A DNA stretch of 20,419 bases, taken from IMG/VR virus record IMGVR_UViG_2565956729_000008, positions 1 to 20,419 of that record. One strand, 5' to 3'. The position numbers were made by a program, and so were the translations under genes. The notes under the pieces were generated by a model. That model searched no databases, was not told the DNA's origin, and was given only the letters and a program-made list of their open reading frames with translations. The first letter of the stretch is position 1, and each line of letters begins with the position of its first letter. This document shows, piece by piece, positions 10,964 through 20,419 of the stretch. Source of the stretch: a virus (taxonomy: Duplodnaviria > Heunggongvirae > Uroviricota > Caudoviricetes).

Positions 10964-11595
10964 ATATTCCGGAGATGCCCGAATTCCCTCTCCCAACCTG
11001 GATGAACAAGGGAGAGCCATTAACACTGGCACATTCTTCACATCGTTACTGGGAGAAGGTCTACAGCTGGCTGACATGGCCACTACAGCAAATTGATGTT
11101 GATACCTGCGCAGAGCCTCTGCTTAACCTGCTGGCCTATCAGCGCAACATCACCCGCTTCAGTGGGGAGCCAGTTTCATTATTTCGCTTAAGGGTAAAAC
11201 ACGCGTTTATCAACGCTCAGGACTCGGGCGAACGTGCCGGCTTCGAACGCATCTTTAAGCGTCTTGGCGTGGGAGAGGTAAAAACCCTGGAACGACAGTT
11301 GCAGCATGACTGGGACGTTATTTTACTGCGCATCAATGACACCCAGTTAAGCGAAAACAATGCCCTGATGATGCAGCTCGTGCGCCAGTATGGCCGTACC
11401 TGCAGGCGCTATTTCTTTCAGGTAATCAATACAACCACTGCCCGGCTGACAGCCGGCACATTTGATGGCCATTACAGGTATCACACAGCAGAAGCAACGG
11501 TGAGAAAGGACACCATCTGGTTAACCGCTTCGCTACAGGCAGGACATTACGGCCTGTCCGTGGAGCATTACACATTACAGGCAGACGAAGCATGA
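10960..11595 (+). CDS. Putative baseplate/tail protein I-like
   Basis: 211 aa from the ATG at 10960, overlapping the J stop (ATGA); the track start at 10810 is an upstream extension. Loose pattern similarity to P2 GpI and the canonical position between J and the fiber gene. Confidence 0.45.
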   Translation: MNIPEMPEFPLPTWMNKGEPLTLAHSSHRYWEKVYSWLTWPLQQIDVDTCAEPLLNLLAYQRNITRFSGEPVSLFRLRVKHAFINAQDSGERAGFERIFKRLGVGEVKTLERQLQHDWDVILLRINDTQLSENNALMMQLVRQYGRTCRRYFFQVINTTTARLTAGTFDGHYRYHTAEATVRKDTIWLTASLQAGHYGLSVEHYTLQADEA

Positions 11596-13460
11596 GCACG
11601 ATTATTACTGAACAGTACGAACACTGGTGTGCGAATCAGCTCATCAGTGGAAAACCTGCGCGCCCGGATACATTTGTTTTTGCATATATTCCGGGACAGG
11701 ATGAATCCGCAGAGATCCCCCGCGATGAGATACTCCCTGATGAATCCATGATTCAGTATCGTGCGCCGGTCACCCAGTACGGCCTCCTGTCGCCGAACGC
11801 GACCGCGTTTTCCATCATTCTGGACACGACAGTCGGCGACTTCGAATACAACTGGATCGGTCTGCTGAACGAAGAAAGCGGCGTGCTCTGCATGATTGCA
11901 CACACACCTCGTCAGCAAAAAATTAAAACAGCGAACGGCGTACAGGGAAACAACCTGATCCGCACATTTTCCATGGAGTTTGACGGCGCAGCCGCAGCAA
12001 TGCATATCGATGTCAGTGCTGATGTCTGGCAGATTGATTTCACTGCACGCCTTGCAGGAATGGATGAGGCCCGCCGGCTGCTGGCGTTTGATCACTACGG
12101 TGAAGCCGCTTTTCTGGGGGATGGTTTTCAGGTCAGCTATCAGGATGGTACCGCTACTGTTGCCGCCGGCGTGGGTTATGTGGGAGGTCTGCGCGTCAGT
12201 CTGCGCGAACCTTACAGCCTGCCGGCTGCGGTCGGGGATACCATTTGGATTGATGCAAGCTGGCAGGGATTTGTTACCGGCGAATGGAATACCGTTTTTA
12301 CGTTCTGCGCCCGCCAGGAACATGCGTCCTATACAGACGGTAACGGCTTCCGACACTTTGTCGCGCCACTTGCGAAACTGACATCAGAAGGCTTACAGGA
12401 TTTACGTCCACAGACGCCCGATGAAGAACAAAGCAATGCACTGGCAGAGCACGAAAAATCCCGCCGTCATCCGGACGCAACACTGAAGGAGAAAGGCTTT
12501 GCGCAGTACAGCAACTCCACCGACAGCGACGCAGAAGACCGCGCCGCCACATCAAAGGCAGTAAAAGCCGCAATGGATAAGGCAAAAGGCGCTGTTGAGC
12601 GTGACGGCGACACCATGACCGGGGAACTGAAAATCCGTGGTGTTAATGCGCTGAGGATTTTCAACGAAGCCTTTGGTCTGATTTTTCGTCGTTCGGAAGA
12701 GTGCCTGCACCTTATCCCTACCAGTGAAGGTCAGGGCGAGAATGGCGATATTGGTCCACTTCGACCGTTCACTATTAATCTGCGGACGGGTGAAATATCC
12801 ATGTCGCATAAAGTGTCTGTTGGCGGCGGTTCTCAGGTCAATGGTGCGCTGGGTATCGGCGTTCAGAACGCGCTGGGCGGAAACTCAATTGCTTTCGGGG
12901 ATAACGATACAGGTATAAAACAAAACGGCGACGGCATTCTGGATGTTTATGCGAATGGACAGCATGTATTTCGTTTCCAGAATGGTGTGGCAATAGCGTT
13001 AAAAAATATTCAGGCCGGAAATGCTAAAAAATTCACGTTATCCAGCGACAACAACTCCACGAAAAACGCAACGTTTAATTTATGGGGTAATTCATCCCGA
13101 CCTGTAGTTGCAGAGCTTGGTGATGATTCCGGCTGGCATTTTTACAGCCAGAGAAATACCGATGGCAGTATCACATTCGCTGTAAACGGACAGATGACCC
13201 CATCAAACTATGGAAATTTCGATGCCCGTTATCAGCAGCGAAATGGCGGCGTGCAGGATGTGCGTTATGGTTCCGAAATGTATTACAACCCGGGAGGTAA
13301 CCAGGTATCCTGGACATTTCGCTCACCTTCAGGCCACGGGTTATCCGGTATTAATGTGCAGGAAACCGGAAGTAATTCGGCAGATAACATCGGCGGCGTG
13401 TATTACCGTCCGCTTCAGAAACTGATTAATGGCACCTGGTATAACGTGGCGAGTGTTTAA
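11592..13460 (+). CDS. Tail fiber protein with a P2 GpH-like C-terminal receptor-binding region
   Basis: 622 aa. AEHEKSRRHPDATLKEKGF and the C-terminal ~200 aa (NALGGNSIAFGDNDTGIKQNGDGILDVYANGQHVFRFQNGVAIALKNIQAG ... LINGTWYNVASV) closely match the P2 GpH C-terminus as I recall it. The N-terminal ~150 aa is of a different type from the P2 H N-terminus. Confidence 0.9.
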   Translation: MSTIITEQYEHWCANQLISGKPARPDTFVFAYIPGQDESAEIPRDEILPDESMIQYRAPVTQYGLLSPNATAFSIILDTTVGDFEYNWIGLLNEESGVLCMIAHTPRQQKIKTANGVQGNNLIRTFSMEFDGAAAAMHIDVSADVWQIDFTARLAGMDEARRLLAFDHYGEAAFLGDGFQVSYQDGTATVAAGVGYVGGLRVSLREPYSLPAAVGDTIWIDASWQGFVTGEWNTVFTFCARQEHASYTDGNGFRHFVAPLAKLTSEGLQDLRPQTPDEEQSNALAEHEKSRRHPDATLKEKGFAQYSNSTDSDAEDRAATSKAVKAAMDKAKGAVERDGDTMTGELKIRGVNALRIFNEAFGLIFRRSEECLHLIPTSEGQGENGDIGPLRPFTINLRTGEISMSHKVSVGGGSQVNGALGIGVQNALGGNSIAFGDNDTGIKQNGDGILDVYANGQHVFRFQNGVAIALKNIQAGNAKKFTLSSDNNSTKNATFNLWGNSSRPVVAELGDDSGWHFYSQRNTDGSITFAVNGQMTPSNYGNFDARYQQRNGGVQDVRYGSEMYYNPGGNQVSWTFRSPSGHGLSGINVQETGSNSADNIGGVYYRPLQKLINGTWYNVASV

Positions 13461-13462
13461 CA

Positions 13463-14020
13463 ATGTTACATTTAAAAAATATTACTGCGGGTAATCCGAA
13501 AACCGCGGAACAATATCAGCTGACAAAACAATATGGTGTCACCTGGCTTTTTTCGGAAGACGGCAAAAACTGGTATGAAGAACAGAAGAACTTTGCCAGT
13601 GACACAATAAAAATGGTTTACTCCGGGGACGGGCGCGTGGTGTGGGTCGGTAAGGATGTGACAGGCATTGAACCCCGTAACGCCAGTGTTATTGAAGTTC
13701 CGGATATTACCGCTAATCGCCGTATTACCGCGCCTGGTTACTGGTTTTACCGCGATGGCAATTTTATCTTCGACTACAAACTTAAAGCGGAAGATGAGCG
13801 TGATGCACTGTTAAAACAGGCCAGTATCATGACCAGCGAATGGGAAAAAGACCTGCTGCTGGGATTAATCAGCGACGAAGACAGGGAAAAACTGAAAGCC
13901 TGCCGTATTTATACAAAAACGTTACGGGAGATGACATTCAGCCAGGTTACAGATAAAGCATCGTATGCCACAATTGTATGGCCGGAATTACCGCAGGATA
14001 TTAACGAGAATAAAAAATAA
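13463..14020 (+). CDS. Tail fiber assembly chaperone (GpG/Tfa family)
   Basis: 185 aa immediately downstream of the fiber gene. The C-terminal motif VWPELP matches the conserved WP..P ending of Tfa chaperones. Confidence 0.8.
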   Translation: MLHLKNITAGNPKTAEQYQLTKQYGVTWLFSEDGKNWYEEQKNFASDTIKMVYSGDGRVVWVGKDVTGIEPRNASVIEVPDITANRRITAPGYWFYRDGNFIFDYKLKAEDERDALLKQASIMTSEWEKDLLLGLISDEDREKLKACRIYTKTLREMTFSQVTDKASYATIVWPELPQDINENKK

Positions 14021-16548
14021 TGAGCGCGCTGTTGACGAAAGCATTTGAGAAATGGGTTGCTGAATGTGCCGCCAGTAATTTACCGGCGCGACCTGACTCC
14101 ATTGTTTTTGCACTGATGGAAAGGGAACCATCCAGAAATGATGAAGTTGTCCCTCCTGAAAAAATCACACACACGGTAAATAATCTGCGCTATGGAAAAC
14201 TGGATCCAAACAGCATTGTCTGTAGTGCCGTTGTTGCTGATAACGAGACATTCACTTACGACTGGATTTGCCTGGTCCATCAACCCAGCAACACACTCTG
14301 CGGCGTAATTAAAACCCCGGTTCGTCACAAACTGACCGGCGAAACACTTATCCGCAATTTTGCTGTTATTTATAGCGGACTGGCTCAGGCTGCACACATT
14401 ACTGTTCCTCCTGAAAGCTGGCAAACAGACATCTCGCAGGAGCTGAAAACAATTCAGGGTTTTATCAGCGATCACATAGCAGTATCAACCCGTTATGCGG
14501 TTACCGAAGCTAATAAGCAGTTTTTGTCCATGCAGATAACCCACGGGCGTTATTCAGGGATCTGGCGCTATCTTAATTCAACCGGGGGTATTAACTGGTA
14601 TTTTTTGTTTCTTGCAATGTATGAAAGCGAAGGTAAAGCCTTTTCTCTCAGGGACAGACTCGTTATTTGTGAAAAAGCCTTTCGTCTCGGTATAACAGCG
14701 CCATTCATGACGAATTTCCGCTATGAAGCCGGACAGCATGTGATGATTAACAGCACGCTATTTTTTGTAAATATCGCCGGCATTACTGGAGAAACCACAC
14801 CTGATATCAGTAGCATCTTACAAGGTGAGTTTATTTATACAGGTTCCGCTGTTCTTGAATGTCTCGGGAAGACCAGTAAAGAGATCCCGTCATCATGGTC
14901 ATGGTTCTTTACCGATGTGGCCGCTGATTTATATTCACCGGTTGCCCCTGATTCTACAGACAGTTACCCATCCCTCTGGTTTGCCTGTATTGCTGAAATT
15001 GCAGACGCTTCGTGGTTACAGACCCCTTCAGGGCTCGGCAATCATTCCAGATGGGAAATTATCAGACTGGTAGCGGAAAATAATATTTTACGTCAGCTAA
15101 ATACTGACGCAAATCTGGTAAACGTCTTTCAGGGAAACGTTGCTCCCGGTAATACTCATTACGCGCAATGTTTTTGTCAGGATAATGCCGAAGTGTATGC
15201 CGGTTTACGGGCCCTGGTCTTTCTGGCCGGACTGGTTAATGACTCTGATGCTGCCTCGCAATATTCCAACGCAATGAAAACAATTAAAACAGGGTTGCTG
15301 GCATTATTTGTTCCGGGCCAGAACAGATTCAAGACGTATTACAATGAAGCTGATTACCCCGATACCCCGGGCGATGCGCGTTTTGTGCAAAAAGACCGAT
15401 TCTCTGTGGCTCCGTGGCGCTTTGGTGTGCTGAATACGCCTGCTGAACAGGCACAATATGGACTATCCGTTCTGGATGCCATCCAGAAAGATTATCCCGA
15501 TTTATTTACATCGGATTACGCAGGCATTGATACTTTCGCCATGAGCGACTTTTTTGCATTCGTGGCAAAAGTTACAGCCTCACAGACCGCCGCAACAACA
15601 GCTCTCCGTCGTCTGCAGATCAGAAAAACTGCCGCCGTAACAATTTCAGATATTGCATCAGCAATGTCAGTTTCAGCATGGGGATCAGTCCCCTGCATGA
15701 GTACACGCGACTTTATACGAATTAATGGTCGCTCCGTTGTTGGAGATGAAGATATTGTCTTTCCGGAAAGAGAAATCCGGCACATTACCCCCGTCAATAA
15801 CGCCCAGGTGGTTGTGGATAACCTCAACAATGACACCGTATTGTTTATTGATAATGACTCTGCACTTTCATATCTCCAGTTCAAAATAGCGCCGGGGCTG
15901 GTTGATGGTTGCCGCCTGTCAATCACACCGAAAAGGGACGTGACGAGAACATCATTTCTTACGCAGGATGCGCAGGTTTCAGATGCTCCGGAAGCGTTAT
16001 TTGCAGGGAAAAACGTTACATTTACGTACAATGCAACAACGCAAACATGGCACAGAAACTTTGTACCTGCAGTTTCTTCTGCTGCTACAAATTTATTGAA
16101 AAAACAATCAGAATCTCTGTTTGTTGATGGCGCTCACCCGATCATCCCCAAAATGCTTGTAAGCACCCTGAACTCCAGTCTGGATTCATTTAAAAGCCTG
16201 CCCGATGGTTCGCGTGTTTATACCCTGAAGCTGGATGTATCAAACCCCGTCGGGCAATCCTCAGTTGGCGGCATCGGAATCGCTGTTTCAGCGCAGATTG
16301 AGCCGCGTTATCTCTATCAGAACCAGAACCGACAGTACATTCCAGCGCAGTATTTTGTCAGCTCTGTCTCTGCAAATGCGCGAACAATCACTATCGGAAT
16401 ACAGGTGGTGATGCCTGATAAACCTTACTATGCACTGGATATGTCAACACTGGAAGAAATTGCCGGCGCAGATAATGGGTTGCTCCCCTGTGTTGTGGTT
16501 ATAAAAACACTTGCAGGGACAACGTTGCGTCAGAACGGAATGGGATAA
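14020..16548 (+). CDS. Second tail fiber / receptor-binding protein candidate
   Basis: 842 aa, start overlapping the Tfa stop (TAATGA). Residues 1-140 align with the N-terminus of the fiber at 11592 (shared E.W.A, PARPD..VFA, Y.WI.L, S..LC, TP, LIR.F, AA.HI.V, WQ.D). The remainder is unrelated: a helix-rich central region and a beta-rich Ser/Thr/Asn-rich C-terminus. Confidence 0.55.
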   Translation: MSALLTKAFEKWVAECAASNLPARPDSIVFALMEREPSRNDEVVPPEKITHTVNNLRYGKLDPNSIVCSAVVADNETFTYDWICLVHQPSNTLCGVIKTPVRHKLTGETLIRNFAVIYSGLAQAAHITVPPESWQTDISQELKTIQGFISDHIAVSTRYAVTEANKQFLSMQITHGRYSGIWRYLNSTGGINWYFLFLAMYESEGKAFSLRDRLVICEKAFRLGITAPFMTNFRYEAGQHVMINSTLFFVNIAGITGETTPDISSILQGEFIYTGSAVLECLGKTSKEIPSSWSWFFTDVAADLYSPVAPDSTDSYPSLWFACIAEIADASWLQTPSGLGNHSRWEIIRLVAENNILRQLNTDANLVNVFQGNVAPGNTHYAQCFCQDNAEVYAGLRALVFLAGLVNDSDAASQYSNAMKTIKTGLLALFVPGQNRFKTYYNEADYPDTPGDARFVQKDRFSVAPWRFGVLNTPAEQAQYGLSVLDAIQKDYPDLFTSDYAGIDTFAMSDFFAFVAKVTASQTAATTALRRLQIRKTAAVTISDIASAMSVSAWGSVPCMSTRDFIRINGRSVVGDEDIVFPEREIRHITPVNNAQVVVDNLNNDTVLFIDNDSALSYLQFKIAPGLVDGCRLSITPKRDVTRTSFLTQDAQVSDAPEALFAGKNVTFTYNATTQTWHRNFVPAVSSAATNLLKKQSESLFVDGAHPIIPKMLVSTLNSSLDSFKSLPDGSRVYTLKLDVSNPVGQSSVGGIGIAVSAQIEPRYLYQNQNRQYIPAQYFVSSVSANARTITIGIQVVMPDKPYYALDMSTLEEIAGADNGLLPCVVVIKTLAGTTLRQNGMG

Positions 16549-19536: not shown

Positions 19537-19575
19537 ACACCAGACATAAAAGCCACATAAACGCCCCATCACATA

Positions 19576-19600
19576 ACGCACGGTCCCGGCCGTGCGTTTT
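19576..19600 (+). terminator. Rho-independent terminator at the end of the late operon
   Basis: ACGCACGG-tcccgg-CCGTGCGT followed by TTTT: a GC-rich 8-bp stem, short loop and U-tract, 40 bp after the last tail gene stop. Confidence 0.7.
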
Positions 19601-19856
19601 CCTATCCACCACCTGATTAATGCGTTCTGCGTGCCATTCTGGTGCTGTATGCGCACACCGCGTAAACGGTGTGACGTAAAGCGTGAGGTGACGTAAACCG
19701 CGCTACCCCCTCCAACCCGCGGGTTTTGTGTTGAAACGCTTTTTCAGTTTTCTGGCGTGCAAAAATGACCGCCAGCCAGCGCAGTAACTGGGGGGAAAGC
19801 GAAGTTCTGAAATTTCACACTTTGAAATTTTTTGCAATTTTAAGAGAGATTTTTTC

Positions 19857-20067
19857 GATCGCATAAATGGCAGGAGAAACAAAACAGACTGATATTAAAA
19901 GAGTTTTCATACTTTACGCGAGACAAAAAACGATCACGAAAGGATCGCATCAAACAACCATCAGACAAAGAAGCCAGACACGGCGCGGCCTGCACAAAAT
20001 TAACGGGTAAAATAAAACTGAAAAAAGGATCACAACAGGGCGACGATCGCATCATAAAGATCGGCAT
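19857..20067. repeat. GATC-containing direct repeats in an A-rich non-coding region
   Basis: Four copies of GATCG(G)CAT-AAA: GATCGCATAAA at 19857, GATCGCATCAAA at 19943, GATCGCATCATAAA at 20045 and GATCGGCATAAAA at 20059. Seven GATC sites fall within 19857-20116. Confidence 0.4.
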
Positions 20068-20096
20068 AAAAGGTTCAACTGGATAAGGTTATGCAA

Positions 20097-20126
20097 TTGA
20101 AACAGAAGAGATGATCAGGCTAGAAT
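20097..20126 (+). promoter_or_regulatory. Candidate sigma70 promoter for the hok-like transcript
   Basis: TTGAAA (20097-20102), 18-bp spacer, TAGAAT (20121-20126). A GATC lies in the spacer. Predicted start site is about 145 nt upstream of the hok-like ATG, consistent with the long structured leaders of hok-family mRNAs. Confidence 0.3.
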
Positions 20127-20258
20127 CGCTGCGGGTGCCTTTCGGCTGATGGTCGGAGGGTAAGCCCGAAGGCCGGATGTGGAAAGGCCCCGGAAAACAT
20201 TTTCTGTTTAACCGAGGCCCTATCCCGTCTACCTAGCAAGTGACAGGTTAGCGCCTCC

Positions 20259-20372
20259 ATGAAAAAGGAGCAAGCGCTATGTCGCAAAAATCGCTTACGG
20301 CCATCACGTTCTGCGCGACGGTCATCCTTATCATCTGGATGTTGCACGGTTCGCTGTGTGAAATACGGATGA
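20259..20372 (+). CDS. Possible mok-like overlapping reading frame
   Basis: ATG at 20259 opens a 37-codon frame that overlaps the hok-like ORF in another frame and ends at TGA 20370-20372. Arrangement is reminiscent of mok/hok translational coupling. It is shorter than canonical mok. Confidence 0.25.
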   Translation: MKKEQALCRKNRLRPSRSARRSSLSSGCCTVRCVKYG

Positions 20373-20419
20373 GCTTCTGGGGTGCGGAGTTTGCGGCGTT
20401 CTTACAATGTAAACAGTAA
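20279..20419 (+). CDS. hok: Hok/Gef-family type I toxin (small membrane protein)
   Basis: 46-aa ORF, MSQKSLTAITFCATVILIIWMLHGSLCEIRMSFWGAEFAAFLQCKQ. Hydrophobic transmembrane N-terminus with C-A-T-V-I, then SLCEIR identical to the plasmid R1 Hok core, and an EVAAF-like EFAAF. GGAG ribosome-binding site 8 nt upstream. Absent from the ORF track because of its size. Confidence 0.8.
   Translation: MSQKSLTAITFCATVILIIWMLHGSLCEIRMSFWGAEFAAFLQCKQ

Follow-up and report, generated by a model that had tools for sequence, protein, structure and literature searches.

The hok gene and its product

At its right-hand edge the window, by which we mean the whole stretch of 20,419 nucleotides analysed here (IMG/VR record IMGVR_UViG_2565956729_000008), carries a toxin gene of the Hok/Gef type, preceded by a promoter-like site and a long mRNA leader and accompanied by a predicted antisense RNA gene (Table 1). 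A toxin locus of this kind past the prophage late genes had been proposed in the original prediction, and Pfam, PHROG, RNA-family, synteny and structure evidence agree on it. The 46-residue product (MSQKSLTAITFCATVILIIWMLHGSLCEIRMSFWGAEFAAFLQCKQ) displays the two motifs by which it had been recognised, CATVI (residues 12-16) and SLCEIR (residues 25-30), along with a hydrophobic stretch (LTAITFCATVILIIWML), in keeping with the hydrophobic N-terminal helix of these peptides of about 45-55 residues, and the pattern C..T....LCE....E.

Profile searches placed the peptide in the family, with matches far better than chance. The Pfam model HOK_GEF (PF01848), the check that had been suggested for it, matched residues 7-44 on profile positions 5-42 of 42, at 28.4 bits (gathering score 22; E 1.2e-6), and PHROG 251, a phage 'moron' family described as 'MokW-like host killing', matched with 80.4 bits (E 1.4e-22). 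The NCBIfam models for the HokA equivalog (NF007290; 35.1 bits, cut-off 89) and for a Hok subfamily (NF007279; 21.6 bits, cut-off 73) both scored far below their cut-offs. We accordingly class the predicted peptide as a Hok that is neither HokA nor another named orthologue. The locus had been called unannotated, which is true of the ORF track but not of the public databases: an identical 46-residue protein is named 'Hok/Gef family protein [Escherichia coli]' in NCBI, and RefSeq E. coli genomes as well as phage P88 contain annotated relatives that differ by one residue. Alignment with Hok of plasmid R1 revealed 15 invariant positions in common, including the SLCEIR core and C12, T14, L26, C27, E28 and E37, the last six of which correspond to the conserved logo positions C16, T18, L30, C31, E32 and E41 among 1264 surveyed Hok peptides (bioRxiv 10.1101/2025.08.07.668861). 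Neither this peptide nor its A13V relative occurs in the supplementary text of that Hok catalogue preprint, as far as the text was available (bioRxiv 10.1101/2025.08.07.668861).

Among 40 distinct homologous loci the hok frame is 44-46 codons long and shows a ratio of synonymous to non-synonymous alternative codons of 27:36, as against 10:56 and 7:58 in the other two frames. The synonymous share being far above that of either alternative, hok is the frame under purifying selection. In one copy, that of the Stx2a phage Stx2_707 (L094), hok is frameshifted by one additional G in a G-run close to its 3' end, giving a predicted 44-residue product with an altered C-terminus in which the toxin is possibly inactivated.

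Table 1. Features of the hok/sok locus, in window coordinates
Feature	Position	Strand	Remarks
hok promoter	20097..20126	+	predicted, sigma-70-like; -35 TTGAAA 20097-20102, 18-nt spacer, -10 TAGAAT 20121-20126
Antisense 75-aa ORF (ORF track)	20120..20347	-	judged spurious
hok mRNA 5' leader	20133..20278	+	likely +1 at G20133; RF01794 match
tac box GGGUGCCUU(UCGGCU)	20133-20147	+	5' end of leader
Predicted Sok antitoxin RNA, ~57 nt	20181..20237 (~20237 to ~20181)	-	homology to sokB, by which the ends are placed
Predicted sok promoter	20245..20273	-	-35 TTGCTC 20273-20268, 17-nt spacer, -10 TAACCT 20250-20245
SD-sequestering hairpin AGCGCCUCC-(loop AUGAAAAA)-GGAG-CAA-GCGCU	20250..20278	+	hok SD GGAG 20267-20270
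'mok-like' 37-codon ORF	20259..20372	+	overlaps hok; probably fortuitous
hok toxin gene	20279..20419	+	46 codons + stop; GGAG 8 nt 5' of ATG

Promoter and leader of the hok mRNA

The hok promoter-like site scores 10 of 12 consensus matches in a consensus scan (5819-5848 of contig L002, corresponding to the window positions in Table 1). Given where this site positions the +1, transcription likely starts at G20133, 146 nt 5' of the hok ATG, in good agreement with the promoter that had been predicted about 145 nt upstream. The extent of the locus nonetheless had to be revised: hok itself lies where it had been placed, but promoter and leader start about 160 nt 5' of position 20259, at which the locus had been made to begin. 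Relatives with unrelated flanks differ in promoter sequence but keep a TTGNNN / TA(G/A)A(T/A)T pair equally far from +1, and homology to the copies in Stx phages and P88-type phages starts 0-3 nt from 20133.

The leader is matched over the full length of the Rfam model RF01794 ('sok'; window 20133-20292, plus strand; model 1-157) with 39.7 bits and an E-value of 2.8e-7, below the gathering score of 59. This model recovers the reference loci on the sense strand, namely hokC of E. coli K-12 (118 bits), hokB of K-12 (110 bits) and an R1-type hok (87 bits). Because all three are matched on the hok strand, what RF01794 actually models is the hok-mRNA leader in sense orientation, from +1 as far as the hok AUG. 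The score in the window is far from the 110-118 bits of hokB and hokC; sister copies in P88 and 933W reach 47.9 and 35.6 bits.

Fold-back of the full-length transcript

The window ends with the last base of the hok stop codon (20419) and holds the first 287 nt of a predicted mRNA of approximately 408 nt, of which some 120 nt of 3' UTR lie beyond it in the source genome. We read this part from L002, a contig 100% identical to the last 6141 nt of the window. Downstream of hok it contains a strong hairpin (GACGGGGGAGCAAUCCCCCGUC, +297..+318), a box AAGGCACCC at +345..+353 (58-66 nt past the hok stop and the window end) and an intrinsic terminator (AACCCGCAGCGUAAAAACUGCGGGUUUUCUUUUU). The box is complementary to the 5' tac element GGGUGCCUU and is the candidate fbi element. 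In the predicted fold of the 408-nt RNA (-176.6 kcal/mol, z -8.6), nucleotides 1-15 are paired with +339..+353.

Such a tac/fbi fold-back is the defining trait of hok mRNAs (PMC9841398), and long-range closure of the full-length mRNA is what folding predicts here. The pairing of leader and 3' end that had been proposed as a check was thus found, with its 3' partner outside the window. An RNAalifold consensus of 40 distinct homologues retained this closing helix; pairs were broken in no more than single sequences, and the one-sided changes were all wobble-compatible. Both boxes are near-invariant within the clade, and covariation support comes only from comparison between clades: GGGUGCCUU/AAGGCACCC here corresponds to GGGUGCC/GGCACCC (+351-357) in hokB and to GGCGCUU/AAGCGCC (+385-391) in R1. 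The hairpin GACGGGGGAGCAAUCCCCCGUC shows compensatory changes, with GC replaced by AU in 13 sequences and AU replaced by GC or CG in 11, and could serve to stop 3' trimming. When an RNA truncated at the 3' side (+1..+324, fbi removed) was folded, the Shine-Dalgarno (SD) sequence was not freed; tac paired locally with nucleotides 19-35, and the SD hairpin persisted.

Among the 80 IMG/VR loci retrieved, 27 (L016, L021, L024 and others) end 3 nt past the last hok sense codon, as the window does. This suggests that provirus boundaries are routinely trimmed at the last called gene, with loss of the hok 3' UTR and of the 279 nt proximal to attR. Gene callers and provirus-boundary tools that cut the locus at the hok stop lose the 3' UTR that controls the toxin, with fbi and the terminator.

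A predicted antisense Sok gene

In K-12, the annotated genes sokC and sokB are antisense to the central part of the hok-mRNA leader, and the same arrangement is seen on the minus strand of the window. The predicted Sok has a single-stranded 5' tail (GCUAGGUAGACGG), followed by a hairpin GGCCUCGGUUAAACA-GAAAA-UGUUUUCCGGGGCC and then UUUCC; it folds with -25.6 kcal/mol (z -3.6) into a free 5' tail and a single long hairpin. It is identical to annotated K-12 sokB at 39 of 61 aligned positions (64%), and the two also agree in the 5' heptamer GCUAGGU and in the flanks of the terminator. The layout of its promoter matches that of sokB (TTGCCG-17-TAAGAT) and of sokC, 5' of their annotated starts. The complements of both promoter hexamers are invariant in the 40 distinct homologues, but the same bases form the hok SD and anti-SD, so that this conservation is not independent evidence. 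We placed the Sok-like gene at the coordinates in Table 1 because its promoter, 5' heptamer, terminator and fold match the sokB/sokC pattern. The search for an antisense Sok-like RNA that had been called for thus yielded, at the level of sequence, a cis-encoded gene that is complementary to the leader and has a promoter and a terminator of its own.

The SD hairpin and the overlapping reading frames

The hok SD is held in a local hairpin that appears in the minimum-free-energy and centroid folds of both the full-length and the truncated RNA; among homologues its stems are invariant and its loop is variable. This hairpin bears on the overlapping frame that the original prediction had regarded as mok-like. 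The 37-codon ORF does exist, but its ATG (20259-20261, +127) lies in the variable loop of the conserved hairpin and occurs only in the variant to which the window belongs (L002-L009), the position being CCG, CCA, CTG, CCT or TCA in 36 other distinct homologues. The ORF has no SD and no Pfam family match, and its frame is unconstrained, with 9 synonymous to 52 non-synonymous changes. Since the ATG is variant-specific, sits in a hairpin loop and lacks an SD, and since the frame is unconstrained, we reject it as mok; it is probably fortuitous.

A search for a canonical mok gave no start codon within the Sok target, and the GTG at 20241 reaches a stop after three codons. An overlapping ORF starting 5' of hok is absent in 21 of 45 distinct flanked relatives, and in a subset of relatives an ORF begins with TTG at +101/102, where mok canonically lies. 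About 30 nt separate the end of the predicted Sok duplex (20181-20237) from the hok SD 3' of it. In contrast to R1, translation of hok here appears to use the gene's own strong SD and not a mok leader ORF.

Over hok the ORF track reports instead an antisense ORF of 75 residues, which is present as described. It has no family match (best Pfam E-value 0.16; no PHROG), and the antisense frame measures 1-46 codons in most relatives and up to 87 in others. On account of this lack of a family match and of a frame that is interrupted or varies in length in most relatives, we regard the predicted ORF as spurious. ORF tracks with a length cut-off show this spurious ORF in place of hok.

The upstream spacer

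The toxin locus had been described as lying immediately beyond the late operon. It does lie past the late genes, but a non-coding spacer of 596 nt (19537-20132) separates the last baseplate gene from the start of the hok transcript. No Rfam, Pfam or PHROG match was found in this spacer, and three small ORFs within it were rejected as genes, having no Pfam or PHROG match and no conservation. GATC (Dam) sites cluster at 19851-20150, where 300 nt contain 7 of them, while the window averages 2.9 per kb and the other 300-nt bins have at most 3; three of the sites in the spacer (19857, 19943 and 20045) stand in a repeated motif GATCGCAT[AC]A.

Prophage context and integration sites

The window comprises the late region of an HP1/P88-like (P2/HP1-like; Peduoviridae) prophage, with genes for scaffold, major capsid, small terminase, sheath, tape measure, baseplate and fibres. 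Its last 6141 nt are 100% identical to two contigs (L002 and L008) of the E. coli assembly GCA_000488115.1 that differ in their host flanks. In different E. coli assemblies, the tail genes, the spacer and a gene for an identical Hok adjoin xapR, rpmE, serS and glpQ. The host is E. coli, complete genomes of which match the rpmE-priA flank at 100% identity.

Prophage and host sequences diverge 279 nt past the hok stop, directly after AAAGCGCCCGCAGGCGCTTTTT. This 22-mer, the attR core, has exactly the sequence of the native serS terminator of E. coli K-12. Unoccupied sites could be retrieved for both rpmE and serS; the one at rpmE, in strain D8, has a look-alike terminator, AAAGCGCCGTGCGGCGCTTTTTT. 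The original prediction had left it undecided whether the locus is bacterial flank or phage cargo. The cassette accompanies the prophage at no fewer than four insertion sites, its place being 279 nt inside attR, and this settles the question in favour of phage cargo (a moron) just inside attR and against bacterial flank.

Several features of this end of the prophage deserve mention in their own right. The right junction coincides with a terminator hairpin (6398-6420 in L002 and L008; also in L003, L007, L099 and L100), with look-alikes beside rpmE, xapR and glpQ. Assembly GCA_000488115.1 holds two copies of the prophage at two secondary terminator sites, identical over the 6.4 kb of prophage DNA compared. 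Two identical copies in one genome might be taken for the mark of a Mu-like transposable phage, a reading ruled out both by the P2/HP1-like gene content and by the site-specific junctions at terminator hairpins resembling the serS terminator. Outside the window, between the hok terminator and attR, lies a second terminator-like hairpin on the minus strand (AAAGCTCACAGTTCCTATGCTGTGGGCTTT; L002 6292-6321), after which comes a direct ATGGAC...ATGGAC repeat (L002 6340-6360) that could represent arm-type sites of the integrase. Further upstream are two large tail-fibre genes (14020-16548 and 11592-13460) with related N-termini (PHROG 13714/13388/8239), each followed by a small ORF. Relatives with an identical hok differ in their fibre modules (L003-L009 versus L002), which suggests that fibre cassettes are swapped while the module downstream of them (baseplate gene, spacer and hok) stays constant.

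Related cassettes in other phages

In P88-like phages (Xuanwuvirus) and IMG/VR proviruses, the cassette is 88-93% identical to that of the window at the RNA level; the PHROG 251 copies of the P88-like phages belong to the same clade, their peptide differing by one residue (A13V). To this clade also belong the PHROG 251 copies next to lom in Stx phages (933W and Sp5/VT2-Sakai). In Stx phages the cassette is 75-81% identical, and the homologous stretch covers exactly +1 to +353, where fbi ends; the cassette is placed after lom, and its other flanks are unrelated. Compared with the window, the P88-like and Stx copies have unrelated flanks, promoter sequence and downstream terminator, and the ATG at +127 is found only in the window variant. 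From these comparisons, the cassette itself is judged to move among phages. Homology running exactly from +1 to fbi might bring to mind RNA-mediated transfer; this was ruled out, relatives keeping -10/-35 hexamers at a fixed distance 5' of +1.

The Stx-phage copy lies directly after lom (L092; 45511-45865 in 933W, and likewise in VT2-Sakai/Sp5) and is unannotated in several records. Sp5 appears to carry at least two different hok/sok loci, the lom-linked copy being distinct from hokW-sokW.

A predicted type I toxin-antitoxin cassette carried as phage cargo

The hok/sok system is a textbook type I toxin-antitoxin system. We consider it very probable that the locus is an intact cassette of this type, which an HP1/P88-like (Peduoviridae) E. 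coli prophage has at its right end as accessory cargo (a moron). The evidence lies in the family membership of the peptide, the promoter-like sites, the homology of leader and Sok to annotated loci, the predicted closure of the 5' and 3' ends and the cargo status of the cassette. Toxicity, processing, Sok instability and biological role are attributed to it by analogy with the R1 and K-12 paradigm.

On this model, a constitutive promoter at 20097-20126 would produce the ~408-nt hok mRNA from G20133. Its tac element (GGGUGCCUU...) would pair with fbi (AAGGCACCC) and close the molecule, a local hairpin burying the hok ribosome-binding site, such that the stable mRNA would remain silent. By analogy with R1 hok, slow trimming from the 3' end would then remove fbi and let the RNA refold into a translatable, Sok-binding form. 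An abundant, short and unstable Sok (~57 nt, from ~20237 to ~20181 on the minus strand) would pair with the leader and either block expression or trigger cleavage. Should sok transcription stop, be it through loss of the prophage, shut-off of the host by an infecting phage or induction of the prophage, Sok would decay first. The 46-residue Hok would then be made, enter the inner membrane and collapse or depolarise it.

The role of such a cassette could be prophage addiction, superinfection exclusion or help in lysis, if related systems are a guide. One alternative, which we hold with somewhat less than even confidence, is that the cassette works but serves mainly something other than prophage addiction, either aiding lysis and phage release on induction or excluding superinfecting phages. 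In keeping with this, hokW-sokW doubles the release of Sp5 after mitomycin C and R1 hok/sok lowers the plating of T4 (PMC8621323), and the cassette occupies a moron position beside attR. Against it, the characterised hokW is a different locus, which would make any transfer of function indirect. This alternative bears on the biological role alone and can stand alongside the mechanism set out above.

Several chromosomal hok loci of K-12 are inactive, and intactness of sequence is not proof of activity. The locus might likewise be a decayed, non-functional relic, perhaps toxic if forced but never expressed, and carried as neutral prophage baggage; we judge this improbable. The points that count against an intact cassette are the RF01794 score of the leader below the gathering threshold (39.7 against 59), the NCBIfam scores far below their cut-offs, the missing canonical mok start, with no mok conserved, the predicted Sok duplex, which stops 30 nt short of the hok SD, covariation of tac and fbi confined to comparisons between clades, and the fold of the truncated RNA, in which the SD hairpin persists and the SD stays buried; the frameshift of hok in one Stx-phage copy (L094) also fits a relic. 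Decay is, however, hard to reconcile with the state of the control elements: promoter, tac, fbi, SD, anti-SD, sok promoter and terminator are intact and near-invariant in 40 distinct copies from unrelated phages. The purifying selection on the hok frame speaks against it too, as does the homologous block extending exactly from +1 to fbi across phage types, which is expected if selection preserves a working RNA. Further, 42 of 45 diverse Hok homologues tested were toxic (bioRxiv 10.1101/2025.08.07.668861).

That the real gene is the antisense 75-residue ORF or the 37-residue mok-like ORF, with the similarity to Hok incidental, can be dismissed: both ORFs exist in the window, but neither has a family match, the antisense frame shrinks to 1-46 codons in the majority of relatives, only one variant has the mok-like ATG, and substitutions in those frames are overwhelmingly non-synonymous.

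The finding of an intact hok/sok cassette in a prophage is, in its general form, already known: hok genes show enrichment in prophages, with thousands catalogued in IMG/VR (bioRxiv 10.1101/2025.08.07.668861), and the exact peptide is already annotated. Its significance lies mainly in correct annotation, and the one mildly new angle appears to be a phage clade without mok.

Comparison with known hok/sok systems

The only phage-borne hok/sok locus studied experimentally is hokW-sokW of Sakai prophage 5 (Sp5), for which toxicity, antagonism by Sok and inner-membrane location of the toxin have been shown (PMC8621323). Like the locus described here, it is a phage-encoded type I toxin-antitoxin system. 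HokW, however, has 51 residues, starts with MKQQKAM and has the leader GGGUGCUUGAGGCUAUCUGCC, as given by the published primers (PMC8621323); it is a different locus and not orthologous to the cassette in the window. The same primers rule out reading the label 'MokW-like' of PHROG 251 as orthology with the characterised hokW-sokW. Because hokW is a non-orthologous locus, its role is not simply transferable to this cassette.

The chromosomal hokB/sokB and hokC/sokC loci of K-12 resemble the window locus closely in architecture. In common with it they have a leader of about 146-150 nt starting with GGGUGC(C/U)U, a 3' box at about +345..+357 complementary to the 5' box, and an antisense Sok of 57-59 nt whose -35 element overlaps the hok SD. 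As in the predicted Sok of the window, sokB has GCUAGGU at its 5' end and a terminator of the form GGCCUCGG...CCGGGGCC. The window locus differs from them in being phage-borne and not chromosomal and in coding for a 46-residue peptide that ends in AAFLQCKQ. In K-12, the starts of mokB and mokC fall within the Sok target, some 57 nt 5' of hok; the window has no corresponding AUG.

The paradigm for the mechanism proposed here is hok/sok (parB) of plasmid R1, with its stable folded-back mRNA (tac/fbi), 3' processing, unstable antisense Sok and membrane toxin (PMC9841398). R1 Hok has 33% identity to the window Hok; the two have the SLCEIR core in common, and the 5' and 3' boxes of the two mRNAs co-vary. 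In R1 the fbi element lies 7 nt from the 3' end (+385-391 of 398), compared with about 55 nt 5' of the end of the terminator in the window locus. R1 requires translation of mok for hok expression, whereas the clade to which the window locus belongs has no conserved mok and a strong SD of hok's own. One might tentatively view the phage Hok clade (P88-like, HP1-like and Stx) as a mok-less form of hok/sok, in which hok would rely on its own SD and an anti-SD hairpin, with Sok pairing entirely upstream; we consider this doubtful on balance. As Sok pairs wholly 5' of the SD hairpin, it would in such a mok-less system act by cleavage or refolding and not by blocking a leader ORF. If true, this would amount to a different wiring of the classic hok/sok switch, and a clade without conserved mok offers a convenient natural test of whether the coupling to mok seen in R1 is dispensable.
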